A DNA stretch of 64,000 bases. Source: an uncultured Alphaproteobacteria bacterium (lineage in GTDB: Bacteria; Pseudomonadota; Alphaproteobacteria; UBA9655). Each line of letters starts with the position of its first letter. The first letter of the stretch is position 1. The stretch is taken from positions 9,094 through 73,093 of the forward strand of contig CAYRHD010000007.1 in NCBI GenBank assembly GCA_964424065.1, written 5' to 3'. Shown here piece by piece: positions 14,287-54,612 of the stretch. Below the pieces are notes generated by a model. It was not told the DNA's origin. It saw nothing but the letters and a program-made list of their open reading frames with translations, and did not search any database. A program made the translations under genes and the position numbers.

Positions 14287-14307
14287 ACACGCATGGGTTT
14301 TTTGGAA

Positions 14308-15048: not shown

Positions 15049-15060
15049 AGTGCTTTCTCC

Positions 15061-15843: not shown

Positions 15844-15893
15844 CTTCCATCCTCCCGTTTTTTATAGTTAAGATAAGTTTAGGGGCTGTTCAT

Positions 15894-15970
15894 TAATTTT
15901 TTCTTAAGGGGGACAAGATTTTTAATGATCATCAGCGAGTCTCTATTCGTCTCCTCCCCAAGATCGCCTC
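15894..15970. repeat. ~77-bp direct repeat, copy 1 (intergenic)
   Basis: TTAATTTTTTCTTAAGGGGGACAAGATTTTTAATGATCATCAGCGAGTCTCTATTCGTCTCCTCCCCAAGATCGCCTC closely matches 16835..16909. Confidence 0.8.
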
Positions 15971-16023
15971 ATAACTCCTAGATAAACAGACGCTCTACCC
16001 GATAGGGTAGAGCTTTTATCAAG

Positions 16024-16752: not shown

Positions 16753-16834
16753 GATTTCCTCCGCTTTTCATTTTTTAAATGATCAAAAATGATGATCTTT
16801 AATGAGATAATATGCAAAAATCATTAACCCTAAG

Positions 16835-16909
16835 TTAATTTCTTAAGGGGACAAGATTTTTATCGATCATCAGCGGGTCTCTATTAGTCCCCTCCCCATA
16901 TTCGCCTCC
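16835..16909. repeat. ~75-bp direct repeat, copy 2 (covers the 3' end of the 16884..17222 gene)
   Basis: It matches 15894..15970 and encodes the C-terminal ...RRRIWGGD-stop of the small secreted protein. Confidence 0.8.
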
Positions 16910-17222
16910 TATAAGAGTCTGGCGTCTTTTTCTTTGGAGGGCTGCCTGACCAAACTCCGTCATCAATCGCAGTAGAAAATGTATTCCTAAAATCTTCCCC
17001 ATCAGCACCATTTGAAGTTCTTTTAGGAATTGTTATTGGAGTACTTCCTTCATGGATCGGTTCCTCAACACCACTGTTCTCTTCTTCTACAGTTGATGCA
17101 GTAGGTATACTCTGAGAAGATGAATCTCCATCCATCGGGAAAATCTCTTCATCCATAGCATTCGCCAAGTCAACTAAAAGTATGAAAGCTATGTATAAAA
17201 CAAAAAAACGTGAAATAATCAT
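16884..17222 (-). CDS. small hypothetical secreted protein
   Basis: 112 aa with a signal peptide (MIISRFFVLYIAFILLVDLANA) followed by an acidic, low-complexity mature part. Confidence 0.5.
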   Translation of the reverse strand: MIISRFFVLYIAFILLVDLANAMDEEIFPMDGDSSSQSIPTASTVEEENSGVEEPIHEGSTPITIPKRTSNGADGEDFRNTFSTAIDDGVWSGSPPKKKTPDSYRRRIWGGD

Positions 17223-17289
17223 AGAAATCCCTCTATAATAACAATGCCGTATTTATAATTCTATGAGGATTATGTGTCAACTTGAGATT

Positions 17290-18387: not shown

Positions 18388-18557
18388 GACCGATAGGTTG
18401 TTGTTTAAATTTTAGTTCCTGTAAAACCACAGTCTCATAAACAGGTTAAAAAAGGCCTAAAATTTGACTTGAACAGGAAACTCACCGTCATTCATGGTTG
18501 ACGATAGATTCTGATAAAGGCATGTTCTTCCTAGAATTAACATAGGCAGTCGATCCA

Positions 18558-20543: not shown

Positions 20544-21547
20544 CCTGTAAAGTTGCAATCAATGGATTTGGAAGAATTGGACGCTTAGTCCTCAGAGCAA
20601 TCTTTGAAAATCGTCGATCCGATATCGAAGTCGTAGCGATTAACGACCTAGGATCCGTTGCAGATAACGCCCACCTTTTTAAGCACGATTCTGTCCATGG
20701 TGCTTTCCCAGGAACAGTCGAAGTTGTTGATGATGGACTAAAAATTAATGGCCATCACATCAAAGTGTTTGCCATTTCAAACCCAGAACAACTTCCTTGG
20801 AAAGACTTGAATATTGATATTGCTATGGAATGTTCAGGTCGATTCACTAAACGGGATGATGCAGCAAAACACCTAACGGCGGGAGCCAAAAAAGTCCTTA
20901 TTTCTGCGCCTGCTGAGGGTGCCGATATAACCGTTGTTTGGGGCGTCAATCATAAAGATATCAAAGCTCAACATACCATTGTCTCCAATGCCTCATGCAC
21001 AACCAATTGTTTGGCACCGGTGGCTTATGTTCTTCAAAATACAATTGGCATTGAACATGGCTTTATGACAACGATCCACTCCTACACCGGAGATCAAGTG
21101 CTGGTTGATACGTTGCACAAAGACTTAAGACGAGCACGTGCTGCCGCCATGTCCATGATTCCCGCCTCAACGGGTGCAGCGAAAGCCGTTGGTCTTGTGT
21201 TGCCTGAATTAAAAGGGAAATTGGATGGAACAGCCGTTCGTGTCCCAACACCCAACGTTTCTTTAATTGACTTTAAGTTGGTTTCAAAACGTTCCACAAC
21301 AAAAGAGGAAATTAACAAAGCCATGGCTGAAGCCGCTGAAGAAGAGTTGAAAGGCATTTTAGCCGTCAACAATGAGCCTCTCGTTTCCACTGACTTTAAT
21401 CATAATTCGGCCAGTTCAATTTTTGATCTCACCGAAACCCAAGTTATTGATGGAAAATTCTGTCGGATTCTGTCTTGGTATGATAATGAATGGGGTTTTT
21501 CAAACCGCATGTCCGACACAGCTTTAACAATGCATGCCTTAAGATAA
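20540..21547 (+). CDS. gap: glyceraldehyde-3-phosphate dehydrogenase
   Basis: 335 aa with INGFGRIGR and the active site SNASCTTNCLAP. Its start overlaps the tkt stop in an ATGA. Confidence 0.95.
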   Translation: MTCKVAINGFGRIGRLVLRAIFENRRSDIEVVAINDLGSVADNAHLFKHDSVHGAFPGTVEVVDDGLKINGHHIKVFAISNPEQLPWKDLNIDIAMECSGRFTKRDDAAKHLTAGAKKVLISAPAEGADITVVWGVNHKDIKAQHTIVSNASCTTNCLAPVAYVLQNTIGIEHGFMTTIHSYTGDQVLVDTLHKDLRRARAAAMSMIPASTGAAKAVGLVLPELKGKLDGTAVRVPTPNVSLIDFKLVSKRSTTKEEINKAMAEAAEEELKGILAVNNEPLVSTDFNHNSASSIFDLTETQVIDGKFCRILSWYDNEWGFSNRMSDTALTMHALR

Positions 21548-37842: not shown

Positions 37843-37917
37843 TGGGGCGTAGCCAAGCGGTAAGGCAGCGGTTTTTGGTACCGCCATGCGTAGGTTCGAA
37901 TCCTACCGCCCCAGCCA
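37843..37917 (+). tRNA. tRNA-Gln (anticodon UUG)
   Basis: Hand-folded cloverleaf: acceptor TGGGGCG/CGCCCCA, anticodon stem GCGGT/ACCGC with loop TTTTGGT, T-arm GTAGG-TTCGAAT-CCTAC, and an encoded CCA. The last 15 nt overlap, antisense, the 3' end of the MFS gene. Confidence 0.9.
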
Positions 37918-39855: not shown

Positions 39856-39931
<76 letters not shown>

Positions 39932-40461: not shown

Positions 40462-41094
40462 ATGATAAAAAAAATCCCACGATGTGTTTTTTGTAATTTA
40501 GAAGAAAAATTGAAAATTTATGCAACAAAAAATTTTTTTGTTATATTTGATCCTTACCCTTTAGTTGAGGGACATCTTATCATAAGTTCAAAAGCACATT
40601 ATGGATGTTTAGGAGACTTACCTTATAATATGTTAGAAGAAATATTTATTTTAAAGGAAAAAGTCGCTAAAATAATTACAAAGGTTTACAGGAATGTATG
40701 CTTTTATGAACATGGGCGTGCTGGAGGGTGTTTACCAACAGACCCTAACAATCGTATGTGTCATCATTTACATCTTCATGCTATTCCTTTTTATGGCGAT
40801 ATAGTTAAGGATTTAGAATTAAAGTTTAAACCAGAAAAGCTAGACAATTTTTTTAAGGTTAAAGAATATTATGAAGGCCTTGGGGAATATCTCTATTTTG
40901 AAAATTCATTAGGTGAAATGATGTTTTATTCCGTTAATGAAGGAGATGTGCCTATGCATTATTTTAGAACATTGATTTCTAAGTACATAGGAAAACCACA
41001 TCTTGCCGACTGGTCCTTGTTTCCCCATAGAGACACATGTACATTAAAAACTGCTTCAAAAAAGATTCAGCAATATCATTATCTATTTGATTAG
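40462..41094 (+). CDS. HIT-superfamily protein with ~90-aa C-terminal extension
   Basis: 210 aa with CVFCN, EGHLIISSKAH and the histidine triad CHHLHLHAIPF. Confidence 0.7.
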   Translation: MIKKIPRCVFCNLEEKLKIYATKNFFVIFDPYPLVEGHLIISSKAHYGCLGDLPYNMLEEIFILKEKVAKIITKVYRNVCFYEHGRAGGCLPTDPNNRMCHHLHLHAIPFYGDIVKDLELKFKPEKLDNFFKVKEYYEGLGEYLYFENSLGEMMFYSVNEGDVPMHYFRTLISKYIGKPHLADWSLFPHRDTCTLKTASKKIQQYHYLFD

Positions 41095-41111: not shown

Positions 41112-42263
41112 ATGATTTATTTAGACAATGCTAGTACTAGTTGGCCAAAACCATCAGCTCTTATTGAAGAGATGGATATTTATTTGAAAGAGATTGGTGT
41201 AAGTCCATTACGCGGAAGTTATAGCAAAACAGAGGAGGGAGATTTTTTTATCTCGAATGTAAGGCGTAAACTTTCAAATTTATTTAATATAAACAACCCA
41301 AATCAAATTAGCTTTACTTTAAATGCGACTCATTCTCTTAATATTGTATTAAAAGGTCTTTTGAAAGCTGGAGATCATGTTGTGCTCTCAAATTTTGAAC
41401 ATAACTCTGTTATAAGGCCTTTAGAAAAATTAATGAGAAGTTCTGGAATCTTCTATAGTATCTACGAGTCGAACTCAGAAGGTTTTTTTGATCTTGAACA
41501 AATCGAAACTTTAATTCGTGACAATACGAAGCTTATAATATGTAATCATGCTTCTAATGTAATCGGAGTTATAAGCCCTATTTCTGAGATTGGAAAGATT
41601 TCTCAAAAACATGGCATTTTTTTTCTTGTAGATTGTGCGCAAACTGCTGGAATTTTAAAGATTGATGTTGAACAAGATCATATCGACTTTCTTGCGGGGA
41701 CATCTCATAAGACTCTCTTGGGCCCTCCTGGATTAGGCTTTCTATATGTTAAGGATCCATCAAAATTAGATACCCTTTGTGAGGGTGGAAGTGGATATAA
41801 TTCGCTTTCAAAGATACACCCTCAAATTATGCCCTTAAAGTTTGAAGCGGGTACTTTAAATTATCTTGGAATAGCTGGGTTGTATGGAAGTTTAAAATTT
41901 TTAGAAAATGAGGGAACAGCTAAAATTTATGATTTAGAGATGCAACTTATGCAATATTTTTTGGAAAATATTTCCCAAATAAAACATGTTAAAATCTACG
42001 GAACTCAAAAGTTAAATTTTAAAATTCCCCTTTTATCTTTCAATTTGAAATCATTGCTTCCATCGGAAGTAGCCTATATTTTAGACAAAAAATATTCTAT
42101 TTGTGTCCGAGCAGGAATTCAATGTGCACCATTAATACATAAAACTATTAATACACTGCCCCATGGAACTGTTCGAATTAGTTTTGGATTTCAAAATTCT
42201 ATCGAAGAAGTGGATTTGTTAGTCCAAGCAATTAAAAATATTTCCTATAAAAAGGCGGTGTAA
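41112..42263 (+). CDS. class V aminotransferase-fold PLP enzyme (short-N-terminus cysteine desulfurase/selenocysteine lyase-like)
   Basis: 383 aa with the N-terminus MIYLDNASTSWPKP, the PLP lysine in GTSHKTLLGPPG and a candidate catalytic Cys in RAGIQCAPLIHK. Confidence 0.8.
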   Translation: MIYLDNASTSWPKPSALIEEMDIYLKEIGVSPLRGSYSKTEEGDFFISNVRRKLSNLFNINNPNQISFTLNATHSLNIVLKGLLKAGDHVVLSNFEHNSVIRPLEKLMRSSGIFYSIYESNSEGFFDLEQIETLIRDNTKLIICNHASNVIGVISPISEIGKISQKHGIFFLVDCAQTAGILKIDVEQDHIDFLAGTSHKTLLGPPGLGFLYVKDPSKLDTLCEGGSGYNSLSKIHPQIMPLKFEAGTLNYLGIAGLYGSLKFLENEGTAKIYDLEMQLMQYFLENISQIKHVKIYGTQKLNFKIPLLSFNLKSLLPSEVAYILDKKYSICVRAGIQCAPLIHKTINTLPHGTVRISFGFQNSIEEVDLLVQAIKNISYKKAV

Positions 42264-42360: not shown

Positions 42361-42807
42361 ATGATAAAAATTGCTTCACAAATAAAAAATAGACTTCTTG
42401 AAAGAGGAATGTCAGCACATGCCCTTGAAAAACATGCTGGATTAAAGTCGAGCGCAGTTCAAAATATTCTTAATGGCCGATCGAAAAATCCAAGTATTAC
42501 TATTATTCAAGCTATCGCACAAGCACTTGACTGTAGTGTTCATGATCTTATTGGTGAAGTTTCTTATGAAAATAAGGATGATAATCCACAAATAAATAAA
42601 CTTTCTAGTTCTCCTTGGAATCTTGAACTTTATTTAGAGGTATTTGAAACTGTTACTTCTATTTTAAAAATTAAAAAAATTAACCTCTCAAAGGAAAAAA
42701 TTTTAGAAATTGTAGATGAAGTTTATTTATATGCTCAAAAAGGAAATCAAGATAAGCCTGATGCTCAATTTGCAATGTGGATTATAGAAAAATATATTAA
42801 ATTATGA
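42361..42807 (+). CDS. XRE-family helix-turn-helix transcriptional regulator
   Basis: 148 aa. The N-terminal ~65 aa have a Cro/C1-type HTH pattern (LLERGMSAHALEKHAGLKSSAVQNILNGRSKNPSITIIQAIAQAL). The C-terminal half has no recognised domain. Confidence 0.8.
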   Translation: MIKIASQIKNRLLERGMSAHALEKHAGLKSSAVQNILNGRSKNPSITIIQAIAQALDCSVHDLIGEVSYENKDDNPQINKLSSSPWNLELYLEVFETVTSILKIKKINLSKEKILEIVDEVYLYAQKGNQDKPDAQFAMWIIEKYIKL

Positions 42808-42849: not shown

Positions 42850-44577
42850 ATGAAATTTAAAAAATTATATATAAATAAAGATTATTTTACATTTTTATGT
42901 ACCCTTTTTTTTGCTTCAACATTACTCGTAGGTTTTTTTATTTATGATGCCTATCAAGCTCAAGTGACTGATAAACATAGAAGGTTACGTATCACTGGGA
43001 ATGAAATAGCTATAAATTTAGATGAATTTCTAACTCAAATAAGTGAAATTGTGCTTTCTTTCGGAAAACATATATCTTCTGGAAATACAACTCCTGTTCG
43101 GATAGCTAATGTATTAGGAAAAAAATCGGAAAATCATTATCCAACCGATTTTTTATCTAAAATAGATGCATCTTGGATTTCAAATAACGATTTTATGACT
43201 TTTAATAATCAGTATGGAGTTCTTGATAATCCCACAAATATGTCATTCCGCTCTTATGTTAAGGCTTGTAAAAAGGTTCCGTGGAAATTGCATTTTTCAA
43301 AACCCGCAGTTGGAACTCCTGGAGGATTATGGCAAATTCCGGCTGGAATGGGTATAACAGATAGCGAGGGTAAATACGTTGGAATTATTGCTATAGGGCT
43401 AAATATTGCTGAACTAAATAGCAAAATTCATCGAATTTCATTTGAAAGAGGAGTAAGTTTTGTCCTCTTAGATGATCAATATAGAATTATTCTACAGTCA
43501 CTTGATAATGAGCTTGATCCAAATAGTACATTTTATAGAGACTACTTTTCAGAAAACTCTTTGTTTTTAAATGATGAAGGAATTTTGAAAAATCCTCTAA
43601 TATATAAAGGAATAAATTATAGTTACTATAAGAAAATTAATAATTATCCTTATATATTGTTAATGGGATTTGATAATATTATTTTACAAAACGAATTAAA
43701 AAATAGCATCTTTCCTCATTTGATGGAGTTTGTTGGAATTGGAATTTTAATTTTAATTTTGTTCTTTCTATTTCATAAAAGAATTTTAAAACTGTCGCAA
43801 TTATCTCAAAAAACCCGAGAATCTTTTACTCATCAATTAAAATCTGACATGGATGTCTTTATTAATACAATAATCGCGTATAGCGCCATCATAAAAAAGT
43901 ATTACAATGGCGAGATTGAGGTAGGAGTTGATGAAAAGAGACTTAGAGACTTAATTGAAGAGATATTCCAGAGTGCTTTGAATCTTAGAGTATTTACAAC
44001 TGATTTTCTTAATTTTAATTATGTGTGTGTCAATTCAATTATTAATGAAGTTATAACTATGCAATCTCAAAAACTCGCAATAAAAAACATTAAAGTGAAA
44101 ACTTCTTTAATTAAGGAGCTTCCTCGACTTTGGGCAGATGAACTTCGGCTAAAGCAGATTTTAGGAGGGTTAATATCCCTGAGCATTAAATGTACACAAA
44201 AAAAGGGATGTATGAAAATTATCAATCATTTAAGCGAGGAAAATTCAAGTAATACCTTATATATAATTATCGAAGATAATGGTTTTACTCTCGATGAAGA
44301 TGATTTTGAGCGAATAGATAAGAAGTCTGATTGCGACCTTTTTAAAAATGATATATACGGTTTGGGCCTTGAATATCCAGCTATTAAAGAATTGGTTAAA
44401 CTTCATAGTGGATGCATAAAAGTTGAAAGATTAGAGAAAAGAGGGAAAAAGTTTATTCTTACGTTCCCTTACATTAATCCTTCTCTACGAATGAATGGCA
44501 TGCTCAATAATTCCAAATTGCAAGAGTCTCAAGTTCTTCAAATGTTCAAAGATAGTCAAACAACTTCTATTTCATAG
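42850..44577 (+). CDS. membrane sensor histidine-kinase-like protein (Cache-like extracytoplasmic domain; degenerate N box)
   Basis: 575 aa with two TM segments flanking a ~270-aa extracytoplasmic domain. It has an H-box-like FTHQLKSDMD, a G1-like EDNGF and a G2 YGLGL. The N box reads GGLISLSIK, so both conserved Asn residues are missing. Confidence 0.65.
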   Translation: MKFKKLYINKDYFTFLCTLFFASTLLVGFFIYDAYQAQVTDKHRRLRITGNEIAINLDEFLTQISEIVLSFGKHISSGNTTPVRIANVLGKKSENHYPTDFLSKIDASWISNNDFMTFNNQYGVLDNPTNMSFRSYVKACKKVPWKLHFSKPAVGTPGGLWQIPAGMGITDSEGKYVGIIAIGLNIAELNSKIHRISFERGVSFVLLDDQYRIILQSLDNELDPNSTFYRDYFSENSLFLNDEGILKNPLIYKGINYSYYKKINNYPYILLMGFDNIILQNELKNSIFPHLMEFVGIGILILILFFLFHKRILKLSQLSQKTRESFTHQLKSDMDVFINTIIAYSAIIKKYYNGEIEVGVDEKRLRDLIEEIFQSALNLRVFTTDFLNFNYVCVNSIINEVITMQSQKLAIKNIKVKTSLIKELPRLWADELRLKQILGGLISLSIKCTQKKGCMKIINHLSEENSSNTLYIIIEDNGFTLDEDDFERIDKKSDCDLFKNDIYGLGLEYPAIKELVKLHSGCIKVERLEKRGKKFILTFPYINPSLRMNGMLNNSKLQESQVLQMFKDSQTTSIS

Positions 44578-44578
44578 A

Positions 44579-47500
44579 TTAAGGTTGGTACCTACAAGCT
44601 TTCAGTTTTAGAAGAGATTCTTGTATTCCTTTTTTATCTTTTAGTTCAGTTAAGAGCTTATTAGCTTTTTGAAAATGGTGTATGGCTTTTTCTGAATGAT
44701 TTTCTAGAAATTCTAACTCACCTAATCCTAAGAGCGTCCTTCCTTCTCCTCTTTTATTATTTAATTGATTAAAAATAGAAAGCGCTTGTTGGTAGGCAAT
44801 ATGGGCTTCTTTAAAATTTCTTTTCTTAGTAAATAAATGGCCAAGTTCTCTTAATGTATCCCCTTCGTGAATTAGATTTTCTCTAAATTTAAAAAGATCT
44901 AAAGCACGATTTAAAAAAATCATAGCTTGTTCATAATGAGCTGAATTTGCCTCTAGAATGCCTAACTTTTGCCATACAATTCCTTCAAGCAATGTATCAT
45001 CTTGTTGCTTGAACAGTTGTAATGCTTCTTGAAAATATAACTGAGCTTCATAATTTTTTCCTTCTCTTACTTTTAAAAGGCCAAAGTCTAATTTCGTCTT
45101 AGCGATCTCTATGCTATTATTGATTTTCTTTGAAAGTGATAGGGCTGAATTATAAAGCATTTCAGCCTGATCGTAATGTTCCATTTCCTGGCGGAGTGTA
45201 GCTTCTTCTCTTAAAACTTTGACTTTACCTTGTATGTCTCCGATGCTTGTATAAATTCTATTAGAGTTGTCATAAAGCTCTTCGGCTTTTTGAAAATCAG
45301 AAAGTAAATACTCCAAACGTCCTAATCTTCGTAATGAATCCGCTTCTCCTTTTCGATCATTTGTTTGCCTAAAAATTGTTAAAGCTTGATTATAATAATT
45401 TCGGCACTCATCGAAGTTATCTTGATAAAATGATATGCTTCCTAAACTAACAAGAGCTTTAGCCTCTCCCACTTTGTGTCCAACTTTTTTGCAAAGTTCC
45501 AAACTTCGCTCATAAGATTTTTGAGCATTATTATAGTGGTTGCTTTCTTCTTCAATAAGACCTAAGGTCCTGCTGACTTCAATTTCTCCCCATTTATGAT
45601 TAATGGTTGTAAAAAGAAGCAATGCTTGATCGCAGGTTGTACGCGCTCTTCCATAATTCCCTAGAGTTACATCCAGCTTACATAAACTAAATAAAGTTTG
45701 GGCTTCTACTTGTTTTTCTCCAATTTCCTTTGATAGAAGGAATGCTTGTTCTAAGGAATCTCTGGATTTTTCGTACTCTCCTAATGAGCCTTCTATTTCT
45801 CCTAAATCTCTTAACGCTCTTGCCTCGTTCCGCTTGTTTCCGAGTTTTTTGAAAGATTTAATAGATGTCATATAAATATTTATTGCTTCATCATAATTAT
45901 TTAAGTTTCTTTCTAGATCAGCTTGTTCTAAGATTAATTCTGATATTCCACTCGCATATTTAATTTGTTTTGATAGAGTAAGGGCCTCGGTAAGTAGTGT
46001 TCTTGCTTTTGTGAAGTTACCAATTCTGCGATTGACTTCAGCTAATGCCAAAAGAGAATTTGATTGTCCTGACCGTTCACTCAGGTCTTTATATAAACTT
46101 ATGGCAGATTCAAAAAGTAAAATGGCTTCCCAGGTAAGCCCTTCACGTGAATTGATGTGTCCTAATCCTTCTATCGCGTAAGCCATACACCATTTATTTC
46201 CGATGTTCTTCGCAAGAATAAGTCCTTGCTCGTAGTTACTACGAGCTTTACGAGAGTTGCCTAGAAGTCTGTTAATATCACCCATGAATGACAAAGTCTT
46301 ACTTTGATATTCTTTATTTTTAATTTTGCAAAAAAGAACATAAGCTTGATCAGATAACTCTTTACTTTTTTCGTAGGAACATAATTCTTTCTCGAGTTTT
46401 GCAAGTCCTAATAATGCCTTGGCTTTATAATATACGTTATTAATATTATTTGAAATGGATAAAGAATTTTTATAATATGTTCGAGCTTCATTATAATTTC
46501 CATGTATGCGATTAATGCCTCCTAATCCTAATAAAGAAACTGCTTTAATTTCGGAGTCCTTGCATTTTTCAGAAATGGAGAAAGCTTTTTTAAAATAATC
46601 AAGAGATTCTTCGTAATTATTGACATATGTCTCTAATTTTCCTAAGCCAAGATAAACAACAGCTTCAAGTTTATTAGAAGAACCATTTTCTTTACTCATT
46701 GATTTTAATTTTAAAATAGCATTTCTATAAAGATCTCGAGCCTGATTATATCTCCCTACAGCTGTCATTAAATTTCCATAATCAATAAAAACCTTAAATT
46801 CTCCAAGTGGATTATGGATATCGGTAAAATATAAAAATGCCTTTTCAAAATTTGCTTCGGCTTCATTATAATTTGATAGTAAAAAATTTAAGCGACCAAA
46901 ATAATACAGAGAGTCAGCTATTCCATTAATATCATTTATTTTTTTAAATAATTGAAGGGCTTGTTCAAAATATATTTGAGATTCTTCGTAATTACCTAAC
47001 TTCATCTCTAATTTGCCCTTTGCTTTTAGAATTTTAGCCTCGCCACGTATGTCTTTTGTTTCCTTAAACAGAAAATGTGCTTGATTAAAAGCTGTTAGAG
47101 CTTGTTCATAATGACCTAATTTAGCTTCTAAGTTACCAATTCCTTTTAGTACGGCTCCTTCTTGAACTCGGGATCCTTCCTTTTTGAAAATTGTGAGGGC
47201 TTTCTCATAATCCTCGCGAGCTTCCTCATTATTGCCAGTTAATTTTTTTATATAAGCGAGCCCATTTAAAGCTGTAGCTTCCCCTTTCTTATCATCTAGC
47301 TTTTTAAATAAAAAAATTGCCGAAAGATATGATTCAGCAGCTTTCTTAAAGTCACTATATCTTTCTAAATCTCCTTTCTTTAATAATACTTGCGCTTGCC
47401 CGTCGAAATTATTAATTTTTTGAAAATGTGAATAAGCCTTTTCGTAAAGTTCCTTACATTTTTCAAAATGTCCCAAATAATATTCAGTTTGGCCTAAATC

Positions 47501-48103
47501 TGATAATGTTCGAGCAATTCCTTCTTTATCATCTAATTCTTCGAAATAGTTAAGAGCTAAGCTATAATTTCGCATAGCTTCAAGGAGGTGACCAAGAAGA
47601 CGCTTGCTCGTACCAATGCCGCATAATGAATAAGCTTCCCCTGTTTTTTCTTTTTCTTGTTTAAAAATATCAAGAGCTTTTTGATAATTTATGCTTGCTT
47701 GTTCGAAAAAATTTTTATTTCTTTGTTTTTCAGCTAAATAAAATAGAAGTTTTCCTTCTTTACACCTTTTTGAAATATTACCTTCGCATAGTTTTATATC
47801 AGGTTTATCATTCGAAAGTTTCGGATCAAAGGCGTTACTTAGAATGATTGAAGCGGAAGAGGATAGTTTTTCATTTATGGGAGATAGTATATTTTTTTTG
47901 TCTAGGTAACAAGAGAAATATAAGTAACTTATAAAAATGAGAGTTATTAAAAATAAACTACCTAGCCAAAATATGTGCTTTTTATTTTTAGGATTTTTAT
48001 AAAAAAAATAAACTAAACATAAGATAAATATGAAAGAAAAAATTGACAAATAATACAAACCGACATTGTTAAATAAAATTTTTTGAAATTTGTTGAAATC
48101 CAT
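44579..48103 (-). CDS. membrane-anchored tetratricopeptide-repeat protein
   Basis: 1174 aa with two N-terminal TM helices, followed by about 26 consecutive ~40-aa TPR-like units (recurring ...G.A...LG......G.Y..A...YE.AL.I....D..GEA...). Confidence 0.85.
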   Translation of the reverse strand: MDFNKFQKILFNNVGLYYLSIFSFIFILCLVYFFYKNPKNKKHIFWLGSLFLITLIFISYLYFSCYLDKKNILSPINEKLSSSASIILSNAFDPKLSNDKPDIKLCEGNISKRCKEGKLLFYLAEKQRNKNFFEQASINYQKALDIFKQEKEKTGEAYSLCGIGTSKRLLGHLLEAMRNYSLALNYFEELDDKEGIARTLSDLGQTEYYLGHFEKCKELYEKAYSHFQKINNFDGQAQVLLKKGDLERYSDFKKAAESYLSAIFLFKKLDDKKGEATALNGLAYIKKLTGNNEEAREDYEKALTIFKKEGSRVQEGAVLKGIGNLEAKLGHYEQALTAFNQAHFLFKETKDIRGEAKILKAKGKLEMKLGNYEESQIYFEQALQLFKKINDINGIADSLYYFGRLNFLLSNYNEAEANFEKAFLYFTDIHNPLGEFKVFIDYGNLMTAVGRYNQARDLYRNAILKLKSMSKENGSSNKLEAVVYLGLGKLETYVNNYEESLDYFKKAFSISEKCKDSEIKAVSLLGLGGINRIHGNYNEARTYYKNSLSISNNINNVYYKAKALLGLAKLEKELCSYEKSKELSDQAYVLFCKIKNKEYQSKTLSFMGDINRLLGNSRKARSNYEQGLILAKNIGNKWCMAYAIEGLGHINSREGLTWEAILLFESAISLYKDLSERSGQSNSLLALAEVNRRIGNFTKARTLLTEALTLSKQIKYASGISELILEQADLERNLNNYDEAINIYMTSIKSFKKLGNKRNEARALRDLGEIEGSLGEYEKSRDSLEQAFLLSKEIGEKQVEAQTLFSLCKLDVTLGNYGRARTTCDQALLLFTTINHKWGEIEVSRTLGLIEEESNHYNNAQKSYERSLELCKKVGHKVGEAKALVSLGSISFYQDNFDECRNYYNQALTIFRQTNDRKGEADSLRRLGRLEYLLSDFQKAEELYDNSNRIYTSIGDIQGKVKVLREEATLRQEMEHYDQAEMLYNSALSLSKKINNSIEIAKTKLDFGLLKVREGKNYEAQLYFQEALQLFKQQDDTLLEGIVWQKLGILEANSAHYEQAMIFLNRALDLFKFRENLIHEGDTLRELGHLFTKKRNFKEAHIAYQQALSIFNQLNNKRGEGRTLLGLGELEFLENHSEKAIHHFQKANKLLTELKDKKGIQESLLKLKACRYQP

Positions 48104-48188: not shown

Positions 48189-49091
48189 TTACTGTGAATC
48201 CGTATTTAATTTTATATTTTTCCTATTCTTTTTTATAAGTTGTCCACAACCCCCCTCAACATCTCGTCCTCTACTTATTTGTAGAATTGTATCTAATCCT
48301 TTTTTAGCTACGATATTCTTAAACTCATAAGCAAATTCATCTGATACTCTTTGATAAGGAAGTCCAATTGTAGGATTGTATAGTTGTATTTGAGCTTCAA
48401 AGTAGCGTGGATCAAGTAAATTTGCGAAATCTATAGCATGCTGCTGTGTATCATTAATTCCTTTAAGTAAAAGATATGTGGCCTTTACATATCCATTTGT
48501 TTTTTTAGCATATTCTTTGCATGCTTCTATGGCTGATTCAATGGAATATTTTTGTGTTATTGGCATAATCTTTGTTCTTTCTGCATTGTATGGGGAGTGA
48601 ACAGAGAGATAAAGCTTAAGTCTTATATCTAAAGATAAGTTTGCTAATTCATATATACGGTTAGATATCCCAACCGTTGAAAGACTCATTCTATTAAGGT
48701 AAGGGAACTTTTCTTGAACGACACCAAGAAATGTGCATATATTATTATAATTCTTTAAAGGTTCACCCATTCCCATCAATGCAATGTTAAAGGCTGCGTC
48801 ATCTTTTTCTATCTCGTTTTTCACGATATCTTTTACAATTAGATCAACTTGTTCGAGTATTTCTTCTGGAGTAAGATTAGCAAAAAAGCCACCATGTCCA
48901 GTAGCGCAGAACTTGCATCCCATAGCACATCCTGCTTGAGACGAAACACAAATACGATATTCTTCAAAAGCTATCCCATTATTTGGTGGAAGGCGAAAAT
49001 ATATTGATTCAAATAAATTTCCTTCTTGGTTTTTGAATGCATATTTGATGCTTCCATCAGAAGATATTGATTTATTAATTATTTCAAGCAT
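48189..49091 (-). CDS. RlmN/Cfr-family radical SAM methyl-synthase, lacking the N-terminal accessory domain
   Basis: 300 aa with ICVSSQAGCAMGCKFCATG (cluster CxxxCxxC plus the upstream Cys), MGMGEPLKN, SLSTVG and a C-terminal GGCGQL. It is collinear with E. coli RlmN from about residue 85 onward. An AGGAGAA RBS lies 7 nt upstream. Confidence 0.85.
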   Translation of the reverse strand: MLEIINKSISSDGSIKYAFKNQEGNLFESIYFRLPPNNGIAFEEYRICVSSQAGCAMGCKFCATGHGGFFANLTPEEILEQVDLIVKDIVKNEIEKDDAAFNIALMGMGEPLKNYNNICTFLGVVQEKFPYLNRMSLSTVGISNRIYELANLSLDIRLKLYLSVHSPYNAERTKIMPITQKYSIESAIEACKEYAKKTNGYVKATYLLLKGINDTQQHAIDFANLLDPRYFEAQIQLYNPTIGLPYQRVSDEFAYEFKNIVAKKGLDTILQISRGRDVEGGCGQLIKKNRKNIKLNTDSQ

Positions 49092-49110
49092 AGAGCCTTC
49101 TCCTAAACAT

Positions 49111-49138
49111 ATAATCTATAATCTATAATCTACAATCT
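49111..49138. repeat. heptamer tandem repeat (ATAATCT x3, then ACAATCT) in the divergent control region
   Basis: Read directly from the sequence. It creates phased TATAAT hexamers at 49110, 49117 and 49124 on the + strand and lies 20-50 nt upstream of the radical SAM start codon. Confidence 0.85.
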
Positions 49139-49313
49139 ATAAAATGTAAAATCCCCAACATTATGATCCTTCTTACCAAAAGTTATTTTTGAATAGCTAT
49201 AGACTTGTTCATTTGTGTTCTAATCATTAAAGATATGTAGTTTTTTATAAAGTGGTATGTTGAGAGATCTTTCCCTCGTTCTCGTAACTTCTAAAATTTC
49301 TTTTTATAAAATT

Positions 49314-49327
49314 ATGTATAAATGCAA
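49314..49327. promoter_or_regulatory. operator-like motif ATGTAT-AA-ATGCAA
   Basis: Same half-site and spacing as the palindrome at 42342. Confidence 0.45.
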
Positions 49328-49336
49328 AATTATCTA

Positions 49337-49365
49337 TTGACCATTCGATACGATTATGTATTTAT
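49337..49365 (+). promoter_or_regulatory. candidate sigma70-type promoter of the selD operon (TTGACC-N16-TATTTA)
   Basis: The -35 element lies at 49337-49342 and a -10-like element at 49359-49364. The -10 element is embedded in operator-like motif 49356-49369. It lies about 75 nt upstream of the first ORF. Confidence 0.35.
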
Positions 49366-49369
49366 GCAA
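49356..49369. promoter_or_regulatory. operator-like motif ATGTAT-TT-ATGCAA
   Basis: Same motif family. It overlaps the candidate -10 element. Confidence 0.45.
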
Positions 49370-49413
49370 AAGACAATGCTTTTATCGGTTAGCCCGATTT
49401 AAAAGACAAAAGT

Positions 49414-49427
49414 ATGTATTTATACAA
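49414..49427. promoter_or_regulatory. operator-like inverted repeat ATGTAT-TT-ATACAA
   Basis: Near-perfect palindrome directly abutting the AAGGAAG ribosome-binding site of the 67-aa ORF. Confidence 0.5.
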
Positions 49428-49438
49428 AGGAAGAAAGA

Positions 49439-49642
49439 ATGAAGATTCGTTTAATTAGAACAAATGCAACAACAGCACATCTAGGTGCGATTCAAAAGAT
49501 CAACGATATTCAGTTTCAGGATATTTATGATGTGGATGACAAAAAAGCTAAAGGCTTAAATTTAAAATTCGGCGCAATCCCTGCTAGGGACTTAAAAAAT
49601 ACAATTACCAATTCACAAGAAGTATACTTTAAAGGAGAATAA
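49439..49642 (+). CDS. small hypothetical protein (67 aa), first cistron of the selD operon
   Basis: A good RBS (AAGGAAG) lies 6 nt upstream. Its stop is 1 nt before the next start, and its last codons (GGAGAA) supply the next gene's RBS. It faintly resembles a degenerate Rossmann N-terminus of Gfo/Idh/MocA type, without the Gly motif. Confidence 0.5.
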   Translation: MKIRLIRTNATTAHLGAIQKINDIQFQDIYDVDDKKAKGLNLKFGAIPARDLKNTITNSQEVYFKGE

Positions 49643-49643
49643 A

Positions 49644-50963
49644 ATGAATTTATTAAAAATAAAATCTATTTCTATTTTTTTTGCTAAAATGTTCTATATT
49701 TGCTTTTGTTGGGCCAATGATGATCTTGATATTGAAGCATTAGCATCTCTAACAAAAAATCTCAAATCTTTAGAGATTAATCATAAGAATTTCAATGAAT
49801 TAAAAGATATAGAAGGGATTATCCTTATAGGATCGAGTGGAGCAGGGAAAACAACTTTGCTTAATGAAATACGAGAAAAATGTAGAGGAGTTTCAATTCC
49901 AATAAGATTTATTACAAGACCCTTAAGATTAAATGAAGATGATGATGAAAATACTCATATTACAAAAGAACAATTTGAGGAAAAGCTTAAAAATGGAGAG
50001 ATTTCTTTTGCTTGGACTAGAGGATTTGAAAATGACCGTAAAGAATATTACGGATTTGAAAATGCCTCGAATGGTTTTCCAATTTATTCAGCAAATAATT
50101 CATTCTTTTACTCTGAAACAGGGTTTGCAAATTTTAACCATCTCATTATAAGCGTGTACGCTCCGGATGAAATACGTCAACATCGCCTTGCTTTGAGATC
50201 GCCAGATTTTGCCCTAGGAGAATTTAAAATCAGAGTAGAAGATCCTTATAAGGATGCTAAAAATTTCGCCCATGTCGTCGTTCATAACTATGGAGATTTT
50301 GAAAACCGATCTTCTAAATTTGACCTTGTAACCTTTATTAATGCTTTGAAAGTTATTAAATCTGGATGGGGCAGAATCAGAGACCTTAATAATCATAGGA
50401 TTGAATACCGTGCCCGTCTTTTTGATATTATGACTCATGATGTTGAATTTTTTGGTGGTGAGAGGAAAACTTTCCAATATGCTAGGAGAAGTCCTGGAGT
50501 TCGTGTTCTTGCAGAGCAAAATGGCAAATTTCTAATTACGGCAGAATGGAGAACCGAAATAAGTGGATGGGATTTCAGGTTACCTGGTGGTAAATGCTTT
50601 GAAAATACAGAAGAGTATGCAGATTATTTAAAAAAATTTGGCAAAGATTTTTTGCCAGAAAAGGGGATAGATTCTGCGGTTTTAGAACTAAAAGAAGAAT
50701 GTGGGCTTACACTAAAAAAAGAGGACGTAAAGCATTTTGCTACCTCAAAGTGTGGGGCTACCGTTGATTGGGATTTATATTACTATTTTACTGAACTTAC
50801 AGATACATCTAATGATTACTCCCATACATCTCCAGAAGGTGAAAGAACTTTATCATTATGGTTGCTTCCTGAAGAAGTCCTAAATCTCTGTTTTAATGGC
50901 AGCATAAGTGAAGATCGTACGGCAGCTACTCTCATGCGCTTTTTTTTAAACTCAAAAAAATAG
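49644..50963 (+). CDS. fusion protein: PhnN/guanylate-kinase-like P-loop kinase plus Nudix hydrolase
   Basis: 439 aa. The N-terminal half has the P-loop GSSGAGKTTLL, then IRFITRP...ENTHITKEQFEEK...ISFAWTRGF...YYGF, which is collinear with PhnN (ribose 1,5-bisphosphokinase). The C-terminal half has a Nudix-like box, LPGGK...AVLELKEECGL. The N-terminal 25 aa are hydrophobic. Confidence 0.7.
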   Translation: MNLLKIKSISIFFAKMFYICFCWANDDLDIEALASLTKNLKSLEINHKNFNELKDIEGIILIGSSGAGKTTLLNEIREKCRGVSIPIRFITRPLRLNEDDDENTHITKEQFEEKLKNGEISFAWTRGFENDRKEYYGFENASNGFPIYSANNSFFYSETGFANFNHLIISVYAPDEIRQHRLALRSPDFALGEFKIRVEDPYKDAKNFAHVVVHNYGDFENRSSKFDLVTFINALKVIKSGWGRIRDLNNHRIEYRARLFDIMTHDVEFFGGERKTFQYARRSPGVRVLAEQNGKFLITAEWRTEISGWDFRLPGGKCFENTEEYADYLKKFGKDFLPEKGIDSAVLELKEECGLTLKKEDVKHFATSKCGATVDWDLYYYFTELTDTSNDYSHTSPEGERTLSLWLLPEEVLNLCFNGSISEDRTAATLMRFFLNSKK

Positions 50964-50970
50964 GTGAACT

Positions 50971-52023
50971 ATGAATACAGTTACTTTAACTAACTTATCG
51001 CAAGCCGGTGGATGCGGATGTAAACAGCAAGAAGACACACTTTCAGAAATTTTATGTTCTCTAAAACAAGATTTCATAAATCCTGCTGTTATTGTTGATT
51101 TTAAAAATAGTGATGATTGCGCTGTTTATGATTTAAATGAGGAGGAATATCTCCTTATGACAACGGATTTTTTTACTCCAGTAGTTGATGATCCTTACGT
51201 CTATGGAGTTGTTTCAGCAGCAAATGCTCTAAGTGATATATATGCGATGGGTGGTAAACCAATTATAGCAAATGCCATCCTTGGATATCCACGAGATCAA
51301 ATAACTGCCAAAGATCTAGAGCAAATTCTTCGAGGAGGAACCGATACTTTAAATAGTTCCAATTGCAGTATTGTAGGTGGTCATACAATAGAAAATCCTC
51401 AACCATTCTATGGGTTTACCATTCTAGGAACTGTTAAGAAAACTAACTTGAAAAAGAATATTGGAGCTCGGGAAGGGGATCTTTTAATTCTGACAAAGCC
51501 TCTTGGAGTTGGAATCTATTCAAATGCATTGAAGTTAGGATTATTAACAGATGAGTTATATAATTTTATGCTACCCCATCTTATGAAGGTAAATACGGAA
51601 GGTTTTGATCTTGGATTTCTCTCAAGTATTCATAGTATGACAGATTTAACAGGATTTGGGCTGATTGGACATGCTTTAGAACTTTGTCAGGAAGCAAAGC
51701 TATCACTTGAGCTATTTTACCACAGAATCGATTTCTTCCCTCAATTAGAAAATCTAGTGGGAGCTGTCACATCGCCAAATAGTGGAGTTATGAGAAATTA
51801 CCACAATTATAAAGATAAAATTAAGATTAGAGAAGTTAAGGAAGGTGAAAATCTTGATAAACTCTTACCCTTATTTGATCCTCAATCTAATGGTGGACTT
51901 TTGCTATCCATTGAAGAAAAGGATTTAAAGCAAGTTTTAAAAATTGTTGGACCACAAGCTAGAATTATTGGGCGATTTGTAAATAGAAGAACACAAGAAA
52001 CTCCAATTGTAATTGGAAAATGA
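50971..52023 (+). CDS. selD: selenophosphate synthetase (selenide, water dikinase), Cys-type
   Basis: 350 aa. LTNLSQAGGCGCKQ matches the SelD active-site loop (E. coli LTQYSHGAGCGCK). DDCAVYDL, TTDFFTPVVDDPY and SDIYAMGGKPI follow in order, as in SelD. Confidence 0.9.
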   Translation: MNTVTLTNLSQAGGCGCKQQEDTLSEILCSLKQDFINPAVIVDFKNSDDCAVYDLNEEEYLLMTTDFFTPVVDDPYVYGVVSAANALSDIYAMGGKPIIANAILGYPRDQITAKDLEQILRGGTDTLNSSNCSIVGGHTIENPQPFYGFTILGTVKKTNLKKNIGAREGDLLILTKPLGVGIYSNALKLGLLTDELYNFMLPHLMKVNTEGFDLGFLSSIHSMTDLTGFGLIGHALELCQEAKLSLELFYHRIDFFPQLENLVGAVTSPNSGVMRNYHNYKDKIKIREVKEGENLDKLLPLFDPQSNGGLLLSIEEKDLKQVLKIVGPQARIIGRFVNRRTQETPIVIGK

Positions 52024-53234
52024 TGACCATGTTACATAAAAATCATTCTAAAATTAGATGCTTATTTCCTGCTTTAAAAGATGGAACGGTTTATCTTGAC
52101 AATGCAGCAACGACTTTGAAGCCAACGCCTGTCATTGAGAAACTTCTTGAGTATTATCAAGAATATCCAGCAAACGTGCATAGAAGTGCCTATAAAATGG
52201 CAGAAAAAGCAAATTTGGAATATGAAAAATCACGGTGTTTAGTTCAGAAATTTATCAACGCGATTTCTCCAGAAGAAATTATTATTACAAGAGGCTCAAC
52301 TGAAGCGATAAATCTAGTTGCACTTTCTTGGGGTGAAGAAAATATAAAGCAAGGGGATAAAATCCTTATCTCTATTTTAGAACATCACTCAAATATTCTT
52401 CCTTGGGAAAAACTTGCTGAGCGTAAGAGTGCTCAGGTTAATTATATTCCTGTTACACCTCAAGGTGATGTAGATTTAGAAAGTTTTCAAAACCTTTTAG
52501 ATAGCAAAGTTAAGCTTATTGCTATTACAGGTGCATCTAATGTTATTGGAACTTTAGTTCCTTTAGAGAAAATCATCTCTCTGGGGCATTTACATGGTGC
52601 AAAAGTATTAGTTGATGCTGCTCAAGCTGCAGCTCATGTATCTATTGATGTGCAGCAACTTAATTGTGATTTTCTTTGTTTATCCGCGCATAAGGTATAT
52701 GGAGCAACAGGTATTGGAATTTTATATGGAAAACGTTCCTTATTAGAGAATATGCCTCCAGTTATTTATGGGGGAGGGATGGCTGATAGACTCCGATTGA
52801 ATGGTGCTGGTTATGAATTACCTCATAAGTTTGAAGCAGGTACACCTCCAATAGCTAGTTTTATTGCTTTTGGTGCTGCTATTGAGTTTATTCAAGCTTT
52901 AGGATTTGAAAGTATATGTAATTATGAAGAAGAGCTTTTCGAACACTTCTGCAAGGAATTACATAATATCCCTGAAATAAGCATTCTTGGTGCTCCTCAA
53001 AAGAGGATCGGGGTTTGCTCTATTTTAGCCAAGAATATTCATGCCCATGATCTAGGGACTCTACTTGATGATTATGGAATTGCTGCAAGAGTTGGGCACC
53101 ATTGCGCATCTCCCCTCATGAAACATTACGGGGTTTCATCTACCCTTAGAATCTCTCTTGGTATTTATAACAATTTAGAAGATATAGAAAAGACAATTTA
53201 TGCATTAAAACGAATAGTGGAGATGTTCAAATGA
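52020..53234 (+). CDS. sufS: SufS-type (group II) cysteine desulfurase / selenocysteine lyase
   Basis: 404 aa with LDNAATTLKP, ANVHRS, LEHHSNILPW, the PLP lysine in LSAHKVYG and the catalytic Cys in RVGHHCASPL. It is collinear with B. subtilis SufS. Its start overlaps the selD stop. Confidence 0.88.
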   Translation: MMTMLHKNHSKIRCLFPALKDGTVYLDNAATTLKPTPVIEKLLEYYQEYPANVHRSAYKMAEKANLEYEKSRCLVQKFINAISPEEIIITRGSTEAINLVALSWGEENIKQGDKILISILEHHSNILPWEKLAERKSAQVNYIPVTPQGDVDLESFQNLLDSKVKLIAITGASNVIGTLVPLEKIISLGHLHGAKVLVDAAQAAAHVSIDVQQLNCDFLCLSAHKVYGATGIGILYGKRSLLENMPPVIYGGGMADRLRLNGAGYELPHKFEAGTPPIASFIAFGAAIEFIQALGFESICNYEEELFEHFCKELHNIPEISILGAPQKRIGVCSILAKNIHAHDLGTLLDDYGIAARVGHHCASPLMKHYGVSSTLRISLGIYNNLEDIEKTIYALKRIVEMFK

Positions 53235-53692
53235 ACGTAACTGATACTTCAAAACTTTATCAAGAAACCATTCTTGCTTTTAATAAAAAGCCTTTGAATT
53301 ATGGCATTATTCAAGGGAACAACTGCAATATGGCCGAATGTCACAATCCACATTGTGGTGATACGGTTAAACTTTTTATAACCTTTTCAACAACAACTGT
53401 GCCCACCATTAAGCAAATTAGCTTTTATGGTGAAAGCTGTGCTGTTACAAAAACTTCTGCATCTTTGATGACAAAAAAATTAAAAAATAAGAATTTAACT
53501 CAGACTGGGAAGTTAATTTCTAGTTTTTACTCTCTTGTGGAGAATTCTTCTTCTGATGATCAAACTGAAGAGAATGAGCTAGGTGAGCTTAAAATTTTTA
53601 GTTCTCTTAGCCGCTTTCCGTCTCGGAAAACATGCGCATTGCTACCGTGGAAGGCTTTAGAACAACTCACTTATGCGTTTGTGAAAAAATGA
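53231..53692 (+). CDS. sufU: SufU-type sulfur/selenium acceptor scaffold
   Basis: 153 aa with the three SufU cysteines in context (NPHCGD, GESCAV, RKTCALLPWKALEQ). Its start overlaps the sufS stop in an ATGA. Confidence 0.85.
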   Translation: MNVTDTSKLYQETILAFNKKPLNYGIIQGNNCNMAECHNPHCGDTVKLFITFSTTTVPTIKQISFYGESCAVTKTSASLMTKKLKNKNLTQTGKLISSFYSLVENSSSDDQTEENELGELKIFSSLSRFPSRKTCALLPWKALEQLTYAFVKK

Positions 53693-54612
53693 ATTTTATT
53701 ATAGCAGCAGGTTACAAATACACAGACGTGGATGTTTTAGCTTCTAGTATTGCGCTTAGAGAATTAATGCATCTTCAAGGAAAAAAAGCGGATATACACC
53801 TAACAGGACCATTTAATGCATCAATTCCAAGTAGATTTATTGATAGTGTGACTGAGTATGTAAATCGAACAGTTCTCTCAAAACTATCAGAATGTAATTT
53901 TATTCTTGTAGATATTTCTAATCCTGATTATGTCGATTCGTTTGTAAAAATAGACAAGGTATGCGCAGTCTATGATCATCACTTTGGATATGAAGAATTT
54001 TGGGCGAGACGCATAGGAGTCCAAGCAAAGATTGAACCAATAGGGGCGTGTGCCACTCTTATATGGGAAGAATTTAAGACTTATAATTTTCATAAGAAAA
54101 TTTCTTCTTTAGCAGCTAATCTTCTTTATACAGCGATTATCTCCAACTCTCTAAATTTTAACGCTCAAGTTACTTCCTTACGAGATAAAACAGCAGCAAA
54201 AGAAATCCTTAACTACGTTACACTTCCTGAAAATTGGGCTAAAGAGTATTACAGAGAAGTTGAGAATCATATATTTCAGAATTTACCTAATTGCATACAA
54301 AACGATACAAAAATAATTTCTAAATCTCATTTGGATTTTTTGTTTAGCCAATTAGAAATACATGATCCTAAAAGTCTTATGAAAAAATATAATGTTCATA
54401 AAGAGATGGATCGTATTTTTCCAAAAAGAAATTGGCTTCTTAATTTAATTAGTATTAAAGAAGGGAATAGTTATTTATTTACTAACTCAGAAAAAATAAG
54501 AAATATGTTGGAACAGGTTATTCCGGTAATAAGAAAACCCTCCTTCTCAAAATCCAAAACAGTATGGTTGCGTAAAGAAATACTAGGATTGATAGAGAAG
54601 GTGAATTCATAA
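53689..54612 (+). CDS. DHH-family phosphoesterase (family II pyrophosphatase-like, divergent metal ligands)
   Basis: I place the start at the ATG at 53689, which overlaps the sufU stop in an ATGA; the track ORF begins at 53632. Motifs appear in order: YKYTDVDVLASS (DxD), ILVDISN, VYDHHFG (DHH), PIGACATL and AIISNSLNF. Family II PPases have H, DHNE and SDT at three of these positions. Confidence 0.65.
   Translation: MNFIIAAGYKYTDVDVLASSIALRELMHLQGKKADIHLTGPFNASIPSRFIDSVTEYVNRTVLSKLSECNFILVDISNPDYVDSFVKIDKVCAVYDHHFGYEEFWARRIGVQAKIEPIGACATLIWEEFKTYNFHKKISSLAANLLYTAIISNSLNFNAQVTSLRDKTAAKEILNYVTLPENWAKEYYREVENHIFQNLPNCIQNDTKIISKSHLDFLFSQLEIHDPKSLMKKYNVHKEMDRIFPKRNWLLNLISIKEGNSYLFTNSEKIRNMLEQVIPVIRKPSFSKSKTVWLRKEILGLIEKVNS

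Follow-up and report, generated by a model that had tools for sequence, protein, structure and literature searches.

We describe a gene for a 300-amino acid (aa) radical S-adenosylmethionine (SAM) protein of the RlmN/Cfr family, encoded in a 64,000-nucleotide stretch of contig CAYRHD010000007.1 from an uncultured alphaproteobacterium (the whole of this 64-kb stretch is referred to here as the window). Class A of the radical SAM methylases has RlmN and Cfr as its representatives, and these act on RNA (PMC9692996). From its sequence and its gene neighbourhoods we propose, with moderate confidence, that the window protein is a repurposed stand-alone class A methyl synthase for a non-RNA substrate, possibly one of adenine type. 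The substrate is probably something other than ribosomal or transfer RNA, because the RNA-docking domain and the RNA-contact residues have been lost, and because natural-product clusters are frequent around the genes of its relatives. The protein belongs to an N-domain-less clade that combines familiar chemistry with a new architecture and, probably, a new substrate class.

48189-49091, minus strand: radical SAM gene, 300-aa class A radical SAM methyl synthase core (RlmN/Cfr family), identified from the list of open reading frames (ORFs), Pfam, NCBIfam, a Protein Data Bank (PDB) match and an AlphaFold 2 model

Domain content and start of the radical SAM protein

An earlier note on this DNA had described a 300-aa RlmN/Cfr-family protein with a set of hallmark motifs, all of which were found: VSSQAGCAMGCKFCATG, RICVSSQ, MGMGEPL, SLSTVG and GGCGQL. 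The CX3CX2C motif (C55, C59 and C62) lies within a single radical SAM domain, which was the sole domain detected by Pfam (PF04055, E=3.6e-13); PF21016, the N-terminal helical domain of RlmN, was not detected by Pfam in the window protein. In a PDB sequence search, residues 3-286 aligned with residues 81-359 of E. coli RlmN (3rf9, the best solved-structure match; E=9e-43), at an identity of ~32%. Since this alignment begins at RlmN residue 81, ~78 N-terminal residues, corresponding to the helical accessory domain (PF21016), are missing. The absence of the domain is as the note had claimed, while the N-terminus lies at about RlmN residue 79 rather than residue 85, a minor correction. The best NCBIfam model was TIGR00048 (RlmN), which spans profile positions 70-350 of 355 and scores 238.4 bits, below its curated equivalog cut-off of 290 bits, whereas the Cfr models (TIGR04432 / NF000424) give only 141-145 bits against cut-offs of 468-550.

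The note had also raised the possibility of an upstream in-frame extension encoding the missing domain, and none is present. An in-frame TAG lies 9 codons 5' of the ATG, which is preceded by an AGGAG Shine-Dalgarno (SD) sequence, and tblastn with the 95-residue N-termini of canonical RlmNs detected no N-domain remnant in the 347-bp upstream region (E>1). Together with the start shared by 47 homologues across the clade, the upstream stop and the lack of a remnant rule out a mis-called start or a pseudogene. These features indicate that the start of the gene is genuine and that the truncation is no annotation artefact. A second RlmN-family gene was not found within the window.

The AlphaFold 2 model of the protein (predicted local distance difference test score 93.3; predicted template modelling score 0.90) superposes on 3RFA, 4PL1, 5HR7 and 6FZ6 with template modelling (TM) scores of 0.84-0.86, and on Cfr at 0.68. 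The best structural match is the Sphaerobacter thermophilus radical SAM methyltransferase 6FZ6 (TMq 0.86, root-mean-square deviation 1.7 A, 31% identity), which differs in having 366 aa and was deposited as a probable RlmN; the window protein aligns with it only from residue 95 on. With RlmN itself (23S rRNA A2503 / tRNA A37 C2-methyltransferase; 3RFA, 5HR7) the window protein shares the radical SAM core, the beta-extension and the C-terminal stretch (TM 0.84-0.85), as well as CX3CX2C, the equivalents of C118 and C355 and the SAM-site residues. It differs in being without the helical domain, R114, R141, R206 and R344, in a changed residue at the V174 position and in its near-neutral charge; moreover, its gene is island-borne and those of its relatives are cluster-embedded, whereas that of RlmN is a housekeeping gene. 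With Cfr (23S rRNA A2503 C8-methyltransferase, conferring resistance to phenicols, lincosamides, oxazolidinones, pleuromutilins and streptogramin A, PhLOPSA; 9P0P) it has the class A mechanism residues and horizontal mobility in common, but Cfr has an N-terminal lobe where the window protein has none, and the TM score is only 0.68.

An N-domain-less clade and its residues

In a search of 5.8 billion proteins, the best 49 matches were 247-340 aa long and all without PF21016; canonical RlmNs (344-360 aa, with PF21016) appeared from about match 50 on, at 35-38% identity. All 47 aligned short homologues have a common start, ML.I...S.DGSIKY, and C48, C55, C59, C62 and C282 are invariant among them. 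We defined the clade by this start, a length of 278-340 aa and monophyly with respect to canonical RlmN, and the window protein belongs to it. A neighbour-joining tree was computed from 120 sequences over 285 columns with 100 bootstraps, the canonical sequences being top matches only. In it, all 77 N-domain-less proteins form one clade with a bootstrap of 97, so that the phylogenetic placement suggested in the note sets the window protein apart from canonical RlmN. Within this clade, the window protein and three relatives (P0002-P0004) make up a subclade with 100% support. Cfr appears as sister of the clade with 50% support only; the Cfr sequence used scores 629-649 bits against the Cfr models.

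The N-domain-less architecture is real and recurrent, but rare, as judged from counts in a library of 1.84 billion representative proteins: the family had 3,834 matches at E<1e-30, N-domain-less proteins account for about 49 of the 150 top representatives, and sequences above 275 bits and without the N-terminal extension fall into about 20 clusters at 50% identity. The clade falls outside all NCBIfam models, as tested with the window protein and nine further members; the latter score 193-264 bits against TIGR00048, and none attains any curated RlmN or Cfr cut-off. Source databases annotate clade proteins as '23S rRNA (adenine2503-C2)-methyltransferase'. The only named members in the protein search come from metagenome-assembled genomes of Chlamydiales and Waddliaceae. 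In a literature search, no paper was found that connects genes of RlmN type with phosphonates or with biosynthetic clusters. On RlmN in Chlamydiae the search gave only Kaminska et al. (PMC2836569; 2010), in whose work sequences from Chlamydiae fall on a 'Cfr branch' of heterogeneous make-up and a small subfamily of unknown function is described; their sequences may include the N-domain-less clade.

When the alignment of the 77 members was mapped onto E. coli RlmN and Cfr, the catalytic positions proved to be kept. Window C48 corresponds to RlmN C118, C55/C59/C62 to C125/C129/C132 and C282 to C355, as the note had read the cysteines of ICVSSQ and GGCGQL, and the equivalents of C48 and C282 are retained in 100% of members. 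In E. coli numbering, E105, C118, C125, C129, C132, F131, M176, S211, S233, H235 and C355 are 92-100% conserved over the clade.

The substrate side has fared differently. Residue identity falls from 92% in canonical RlmN to 23% in the clade at T116, from 97% to 27% at N172 (the window protein retains N, N102) and from 100% to 22% at V174 (A104 in the window protein). Furthermore, of 14 core columns with at least 75% K/R in canonical RlmN, six drop to 30% or less in the clade: R114 (88% to 16%), R141 (98% to 30%), R206 (90% to 12%), the Ec273 column (98% to 22%), R344 (100%, all R, to 22%, a mix of Q/R/V/I) and the Ec359 column (79% to 13%). In the window protein these six positions are occupied by E44, A71, N133, G200, Q271 and I286, respectively. 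Of the set R141, R206, R344, N172 and V174, it thus keeps only N172, and retention across the clade is 12-30%. R206 of RlmN is reported to bond with tRNA G29 (PMC5130265). Net charge averages +0.5 over the clade, compared with +5.6 over the equivalent canonical RlmN core, and that of the window protein is +1. Likewise, the Cfr-specific pocket residues Y97/W101/S103/S151/S153/Q329/F330, taken from a preprint (PMC12458371), are L34/E44/R46/N102/A104/S273/R274 in the window protein, with 0/7 matches, and the pocket residues differ from subclade to subclade within the clade. Because the catalytic residues and a confident fold are kept while the substrate-side residues are lost, the methyl-synthase machinery appears intact and the RNA-recognition apparatus, both domain and surface, gone.

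Gene neighbourhoods, control region and island

We compared 14 further clade loci by tblastn and all-against-all BLAST, the metagenome scan having used a clade-specific sub-alignment. At five of these 14 (L083, L094, L096, L097 and L176; 59-65% identity to the window protein) the clade gene lies in a cluster with phosphoenolpyruvate (PEP) mutase, in rearranged gene order. The mutase matches TIGR02320 at 367 bits, above the cut-off of 320, and the five loci also share a PhyH dioxygenase, an Ldh_2 sulfolactate-dehydrogenase-like protein, SAM_HAT_N (DUF62) and a conserved protein of unknown function. Some of them have, in addition, HAD, DUF2608, a major facilitator superfamily (MFS) efflux protein, a B12-radical SAM protein (present in L083, L097 and L176), ferredoxin, a TylF methyltransferase or adenylate kinase. 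Its gene content marks this as a predicted phosphonate biosynthetic cluster, apparently an undescribed one (L083 1-10927, L094 235-9332, L096, L097, L176 93-10793), in which the analogy of Ldh_2 to sulfolactate dehydrogenase suggests that it may be a phosphonopyruvate reductase. The members from these clusters are the nearest relatives of the window subclade in the tree, with 43-72% support. On L083 there is, besides the cluster, a giant ankyrin-repeat gene (>4000 aa).

L178 (49% identity; 8853-20897) offers another kind of biosynthetic setting, in which the clade gene lies between a TauD dioxygenase gene and those for a Pol-beta nucleotidyltransferase and a multi-module nonribosomal peptide synthetase (NRPS) built of condensation, adenylation and peptidyl carrier protein (C-A-PCP) units. 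At L089 (47%, Chlamydiales; 7689-14383), a co-directional block encodes a Nudix/adenylate kinase fusion (Nudix N-terminal, adenylate kinase C-terminal), a GntI/ThiK-like kinase, the short radical SAM protein, a Nudix protein, a 'variant' radical SAM protein (NF045502), a HAD phosphatase and an isopentenyl diphosphate (IPP)-isomerase-type Nudix protein. At L091 (40%), the clade gene follows two class II aminoacyl-tRNA synthetase (aaRS) paralogues and a SAM methyltransferase.

The surroundings of the radical SAM gene in the window itself comprise the following features.

39856-39931, plus strand: tRNA-Lys(CTT), at the left island edge, directly before the GC drop
40462-41094, plus strand: HIT-family nucleotide hydrolase/transferase-like protein with an HLHLH motif, module member
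41112-42263, plus strand: EF2568/SclA-type cysteine desulfurase / selenocysteine-lyase-like pyridoxal 5'-phosphate enzyme (TIGR01977, 446 bits, above cut-off)
42361-42807, plus strand: XRE-type helix-turn-helix (HTH) protein, module member and candidate regulator
42850-44577, plus strand: sensor histidine kinase (NCBIfam), module member
44579-48103, minus strand: 1174-aa tetratricopeptide repeat (TPR) protein with ~25 TPR units, 85 nt downstream of the radical SAM gene
49092-49438: divergent 347-bp control region between the radical SAM gene and the selD cluster
49439-54612, plus strand: divergent selD cluster (67-aa ORF, 439-aa P-loop kinase-like protein, SelD, SufS-type, SufU-type and DHH proteins)

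The closest relatives of the window gene are at L085 (72% identity) and L093 (73%), and these two share with it a module consisting of the radical SAM protein, a 1174-1190-aa TPR protein, the histidine kinase, the XRE protein and the EF2568/SclA-type desulfurase, which among the 14 other loci recurs only there. The TPR orthologues (63-67% identity) come after the radical SAM gene at both loci; those of the histidine kinase are 56-59% identical, with dCache_1 and HATPase_c domains, those of XRE 60-65% (annotated HTH_3) and those of the desulfurase 76-78%. The HIT-like protein, which resembles AMP phosphoramidase and Ap4A phosphorylase structures, has a 61% identical orthologue in L093; in L085 the contig ends within the desulfurase gene, at the place expected for the HIT-like gene. 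Near its N-terminus the TPR protein carries two hydrophobic segments (Kyte-Doolittle >1.6, in windows starting at residues 9-19 and 43-50); it is probably membrane-anchored with its TPR array on one side. An IS630-type insertion sequence (IS) element lies between the radical SAM and TPR genes in L085, and IS3 and TraG adjoin the module in L093. The module (radical SAM-TPR, histidine kinase-XRE, HIT-like and SclA-like desulfurase) is mobile.

The note had correctly given the spacing of 85 nt to the TPR gene and that of 347 bp to the divergent operon, and had looked to conserved linkage with both selD and TPR genes. Linkage to TPR was seen at L085 and L093 alone, with the IS element separating the genes in the former. 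Linkage to selD was not: SelD and the other five selD-operon genes have a homologue in 0/14 other clade loci (L093 having just 404 nt upstream), and in L085 cupin and short-chain dehydrogenase/reductase (SDR) genes occupy the divergent position in place of the selD operon.

The control region carries two copies of an operator-like motif, TATGTATTTATrCAAArGA (49355-49373 and 49413-49431), with the near-palindrome ATGTATnnATACAT inside it, and this block is conserved 5' of the orthologues in L085 (about 2100-2170), L086 and L093 (about 190-260). Since the block is conserved upstream of radical SAM orthologues, the control region belongs to the radical SAM module and not to selD; the motif is a candidate site for the XRE regulator of the module. 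Rfam gave no riboswitch or RNA element within the control region, a promoter scan gave a result not above chance, and a terminator-like site was not found between the radical SAM and TPR genes. Immediately 5' of the radical SAM ribosome-binding site there is a 7-nt tandem repeat, TATAATC x4.7 (92% matches; 49110-49142), which is absent from the orthologous upstream regions.

As for the selD cluster, it has the look of an orphan: the SelD of the window is the Cys form (GGCGCK), and no selA, selB or ybbB was seen among the annotated window ORFs. This cluster and the SclA-type enzyme (41112-42263) may mark an uncharacterised selenium-utilisation trait. The C-terminal half of the 439-aa protein is unassigned; a Nudix-like nature was considered for it and dropped, there being no Pfam Nudix match even at E<=1, and the likeness of this protein to the Nudix-adenylate kinase fusion of L089 is not significant. 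The DHH ORF (53632-54612) overlaps the SufU gene by 61 nt; because its Pfam match begins at residue 23, with an internal Met (MNFIIAAG) just before, its true start is probably near 53689.

All of these genes lie in an island of ~14.7 kb (~39.95-54.65 kb) that starts just past tRNA-Lys. The note had recognised the island, and composition sets it apart: GC is ~30% at 40-54.6 kb compared with ~42% in the flanks, and GC at third codon positions is 0.21-0.22 in island genes compared with 0.29-0.40 in housekeeping genes. The tRNA-Lys(CTT) is likely the integration site of the island. An att-type direct repeat of the tRNA-Lys end was not found at the far island border, and none of the island ORFs encodes an integrase; IS630, IS3 and TraG genes flank the orthologous modules. 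The flanks encode housekeeping genes (sucA, recJ, tkt, recG and rpsD), and the named relatives of the flank-encoded S4 protein are from uncultured Alphaproteobacteria (84-87% identity) and Thalassobaculum (76-78%); the host is an alphaproteobacterium. Because the radical SAM gene sits in a low-GC island beside tRNA-Lys, and the named members of its clade are Chlamydiales and Waddliaceae, it was horizontally acquired and is no alphaproteobacterial-type rlmN. The housekeeping part of the window also holds 6S RNA (Rfam RF00013; 13043-13202, minus strand; 50 bits, just above the gathering score), and tRNA-Gln(TTG) lies at 37843-37917, 2 kb upstream of tRNA-Lys.

Candidate substrates and their weighing

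Under the reading that we favour, a methyl synthase repurposed for a non-RNA substrate, the clade would have shed the RNA-docking domain and the RNA-contact residues and been recruited as a tailoring enzyme in accessory or biosynthetic clusters, and the window gene would have reached its genome on the low-GC island within the mobile module. We infer class A chemistry by homology, from the conserved residues. C55/C59/C62 would, as in RlmN, hold a [4Fe-4S] cluster; a first SAM would methylate C282, and a second would be cleaved to a 5'-deoxyadenosyl radical that activates the methyl group on C282; the thiomethylene radical would then add to an sp2 carbon of the substrate, and C48 would resolve the covalent adduct. 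Fom3 and PhpK (class B/C radical SAM C-/P-methylases of phosphonate pathways) would have an analogous role in cluster tailoring if this explanation is right, but their accessory domains and mechanism (cobalamin or HemN-like) are unrelated to the two-cysteine class A type of the window protein. In its general form, repurposing had been one of two readings offered in the note, and it is supported by the loss of residues and charge and by the clustering with phosphonate, NRPS and nucleotide-type genes.

The carbons methylated in class A chemistry are electron-poor sp2 centres, C2 and C8 of adenine among them. Neighbours that handle adenosine or adenylate recur, namely SAM_HAT_N and adenylate kinase in the phosphonate clusters, the Nudix-adenylate kinase fusion in L089 and the HIT-family protein in the window. 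Given this chemistry and these neighbours, an adenine-type metabolite is a reasonable guess, no more; in the window it may be a nucleoside or nucleotide handled by the neighbouring HIT-like enzyme. More tentatively still, and at a confidence that falls short of that in repurposing as such, the clade could be the first class A methyl synthase family acting on small molecules, C-methylating an sp2 carbon (perhaps adenine C2/C8) of nucleoside, nucleotide or phosphonate products, and here tailoring a sulfur/selenium-linked adenylate-type metabolite. It is possible that the SclA-type enzyme of the module keeps this sulfur/selenium connection.

Several points weigh against a non-RNA substrate. The characterised relatives, RlmN and Cfr, both act on RNA, and a methylase gene within a cluster may also serve in self-resistance. 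The window module is without an obvious biosynthetic core enzyme, which makes the substrate here a guess. The contexts of L087 (Waddliaceae), L095 and L177 are housekeeping or uninformative, the L087 gene coming after mutL-pepP and near genes for the CCA-adding enzyme, a SpoU methylase and RsgA. The tree is a neighbour-joining tree of limited canonical sampling, and the list of substrate-proximal residues derives from the AlphaFold3 model in the preprint (PMC12458371).

The alternative that survives best is that the clade still methylates RNA at adenine C2/C8, either as Cfr-like (self-)resistance or as an alternative rRNA/tRNA modifier, perhaps with a partner protein replacing the N-domain, and we regard this as a lesser possibility. 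RlmN is the best match in both sequence and structure, the Cfr sister position and the 'Cfr branch' of Kaminska et al. (PMC2836569) point the same way, and so do the RNA-related housekeeping genes around the Waddliaceae homologue and the aaRS paralogues adjoining the L091 gene. Antibiotic clusters often contain resistance methylases. On the other hand, the N-terminal helical domain is missing clade-wide, R206, R344 and other RlmN-invariant basic residues are lost with a charge of about 0, no Cfr pocket residue is matched, scores stay far under the cut-offs for both RlmN and Cfr, and pocket residues differ among subclades, which would be unexpected for one universal RNA target. The other reading in the note, of a Cfr-like resistance enzyme or alternative RNA methylase, therefore found no support, and a Cfr-like resistance role in particular is unlikely.

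It seems improbable that the protein acts specifically on the selenium-pathway product of the divergent selD operon, the form in which the note had put repurposing. The shared 347-bp spacer, the selenocysteine-lyase-like enzyme of the conserved module, and the nucleotide chemistry suggested by the nearby HIT-like and P-loop kinase-like proteins speak for such a tie. However, the selD genes are absent from all 14 other loci (with the caveat that an L093 selD could lie off the contig), cupin and SDR genes take their place in L085, and the conserved upstream block accompanies the radical SAM module.

Doubtful, too, and to a slightly greater degree, is methylation of a side chain in a protein or peptide, such as an aromatic residue in the TPR partner or in a RiPP-like (ribosomally synthesised and post-translationally modified) peptide. 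In the closest relatives a gene for the TPR scaffold is conserved as the immediate neighbour, an NRPS adjoins the gene of one relative, and the lost RNA-side residues fit any non-RNA substrate; yet the clade has no conserved association with a precursor-peptide gene, a RiPP recognition element or a peptidase, the IS element parts the radical SAM and TPR genes in L085, and most of the informative contexts are of phosphonate or nucleotide type. That the gene is a decaying or inactive rlmN remnant on a mobile island is scarcely credible and effectively refuted by conservation, since, although it is shorter than RlmN, lies in an AT-rich island and has relatives beside IS elements, at least 77 homologues down to ~35% identity share its start, are free of frameshifts and have invariant catalytic residues, the predicted fold is confident and complete, and the SD and upstream motif are conserved. 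An anti-phage defence system was also considered and rejected: PADLOC returned nothing for the radical SAM gene, and the neighbours gave only generic TPR, HTH and desulfurase matches.

For annotation, the evidence argues against the RlmN label of clade proteins and equally against a Cfr-like resistance label, under which they could also come to be misfiled. To judge by the Chlamydiales names and the ankyrin- and TPR-rich contigs, the bacteria that bear the clade look protist-associated. If the clade does act on non-RNA substrates, two-cysteine class A chemistry would extend from RNA to metabolites, and the clade would point to unknown methylated natural products in bacteria.

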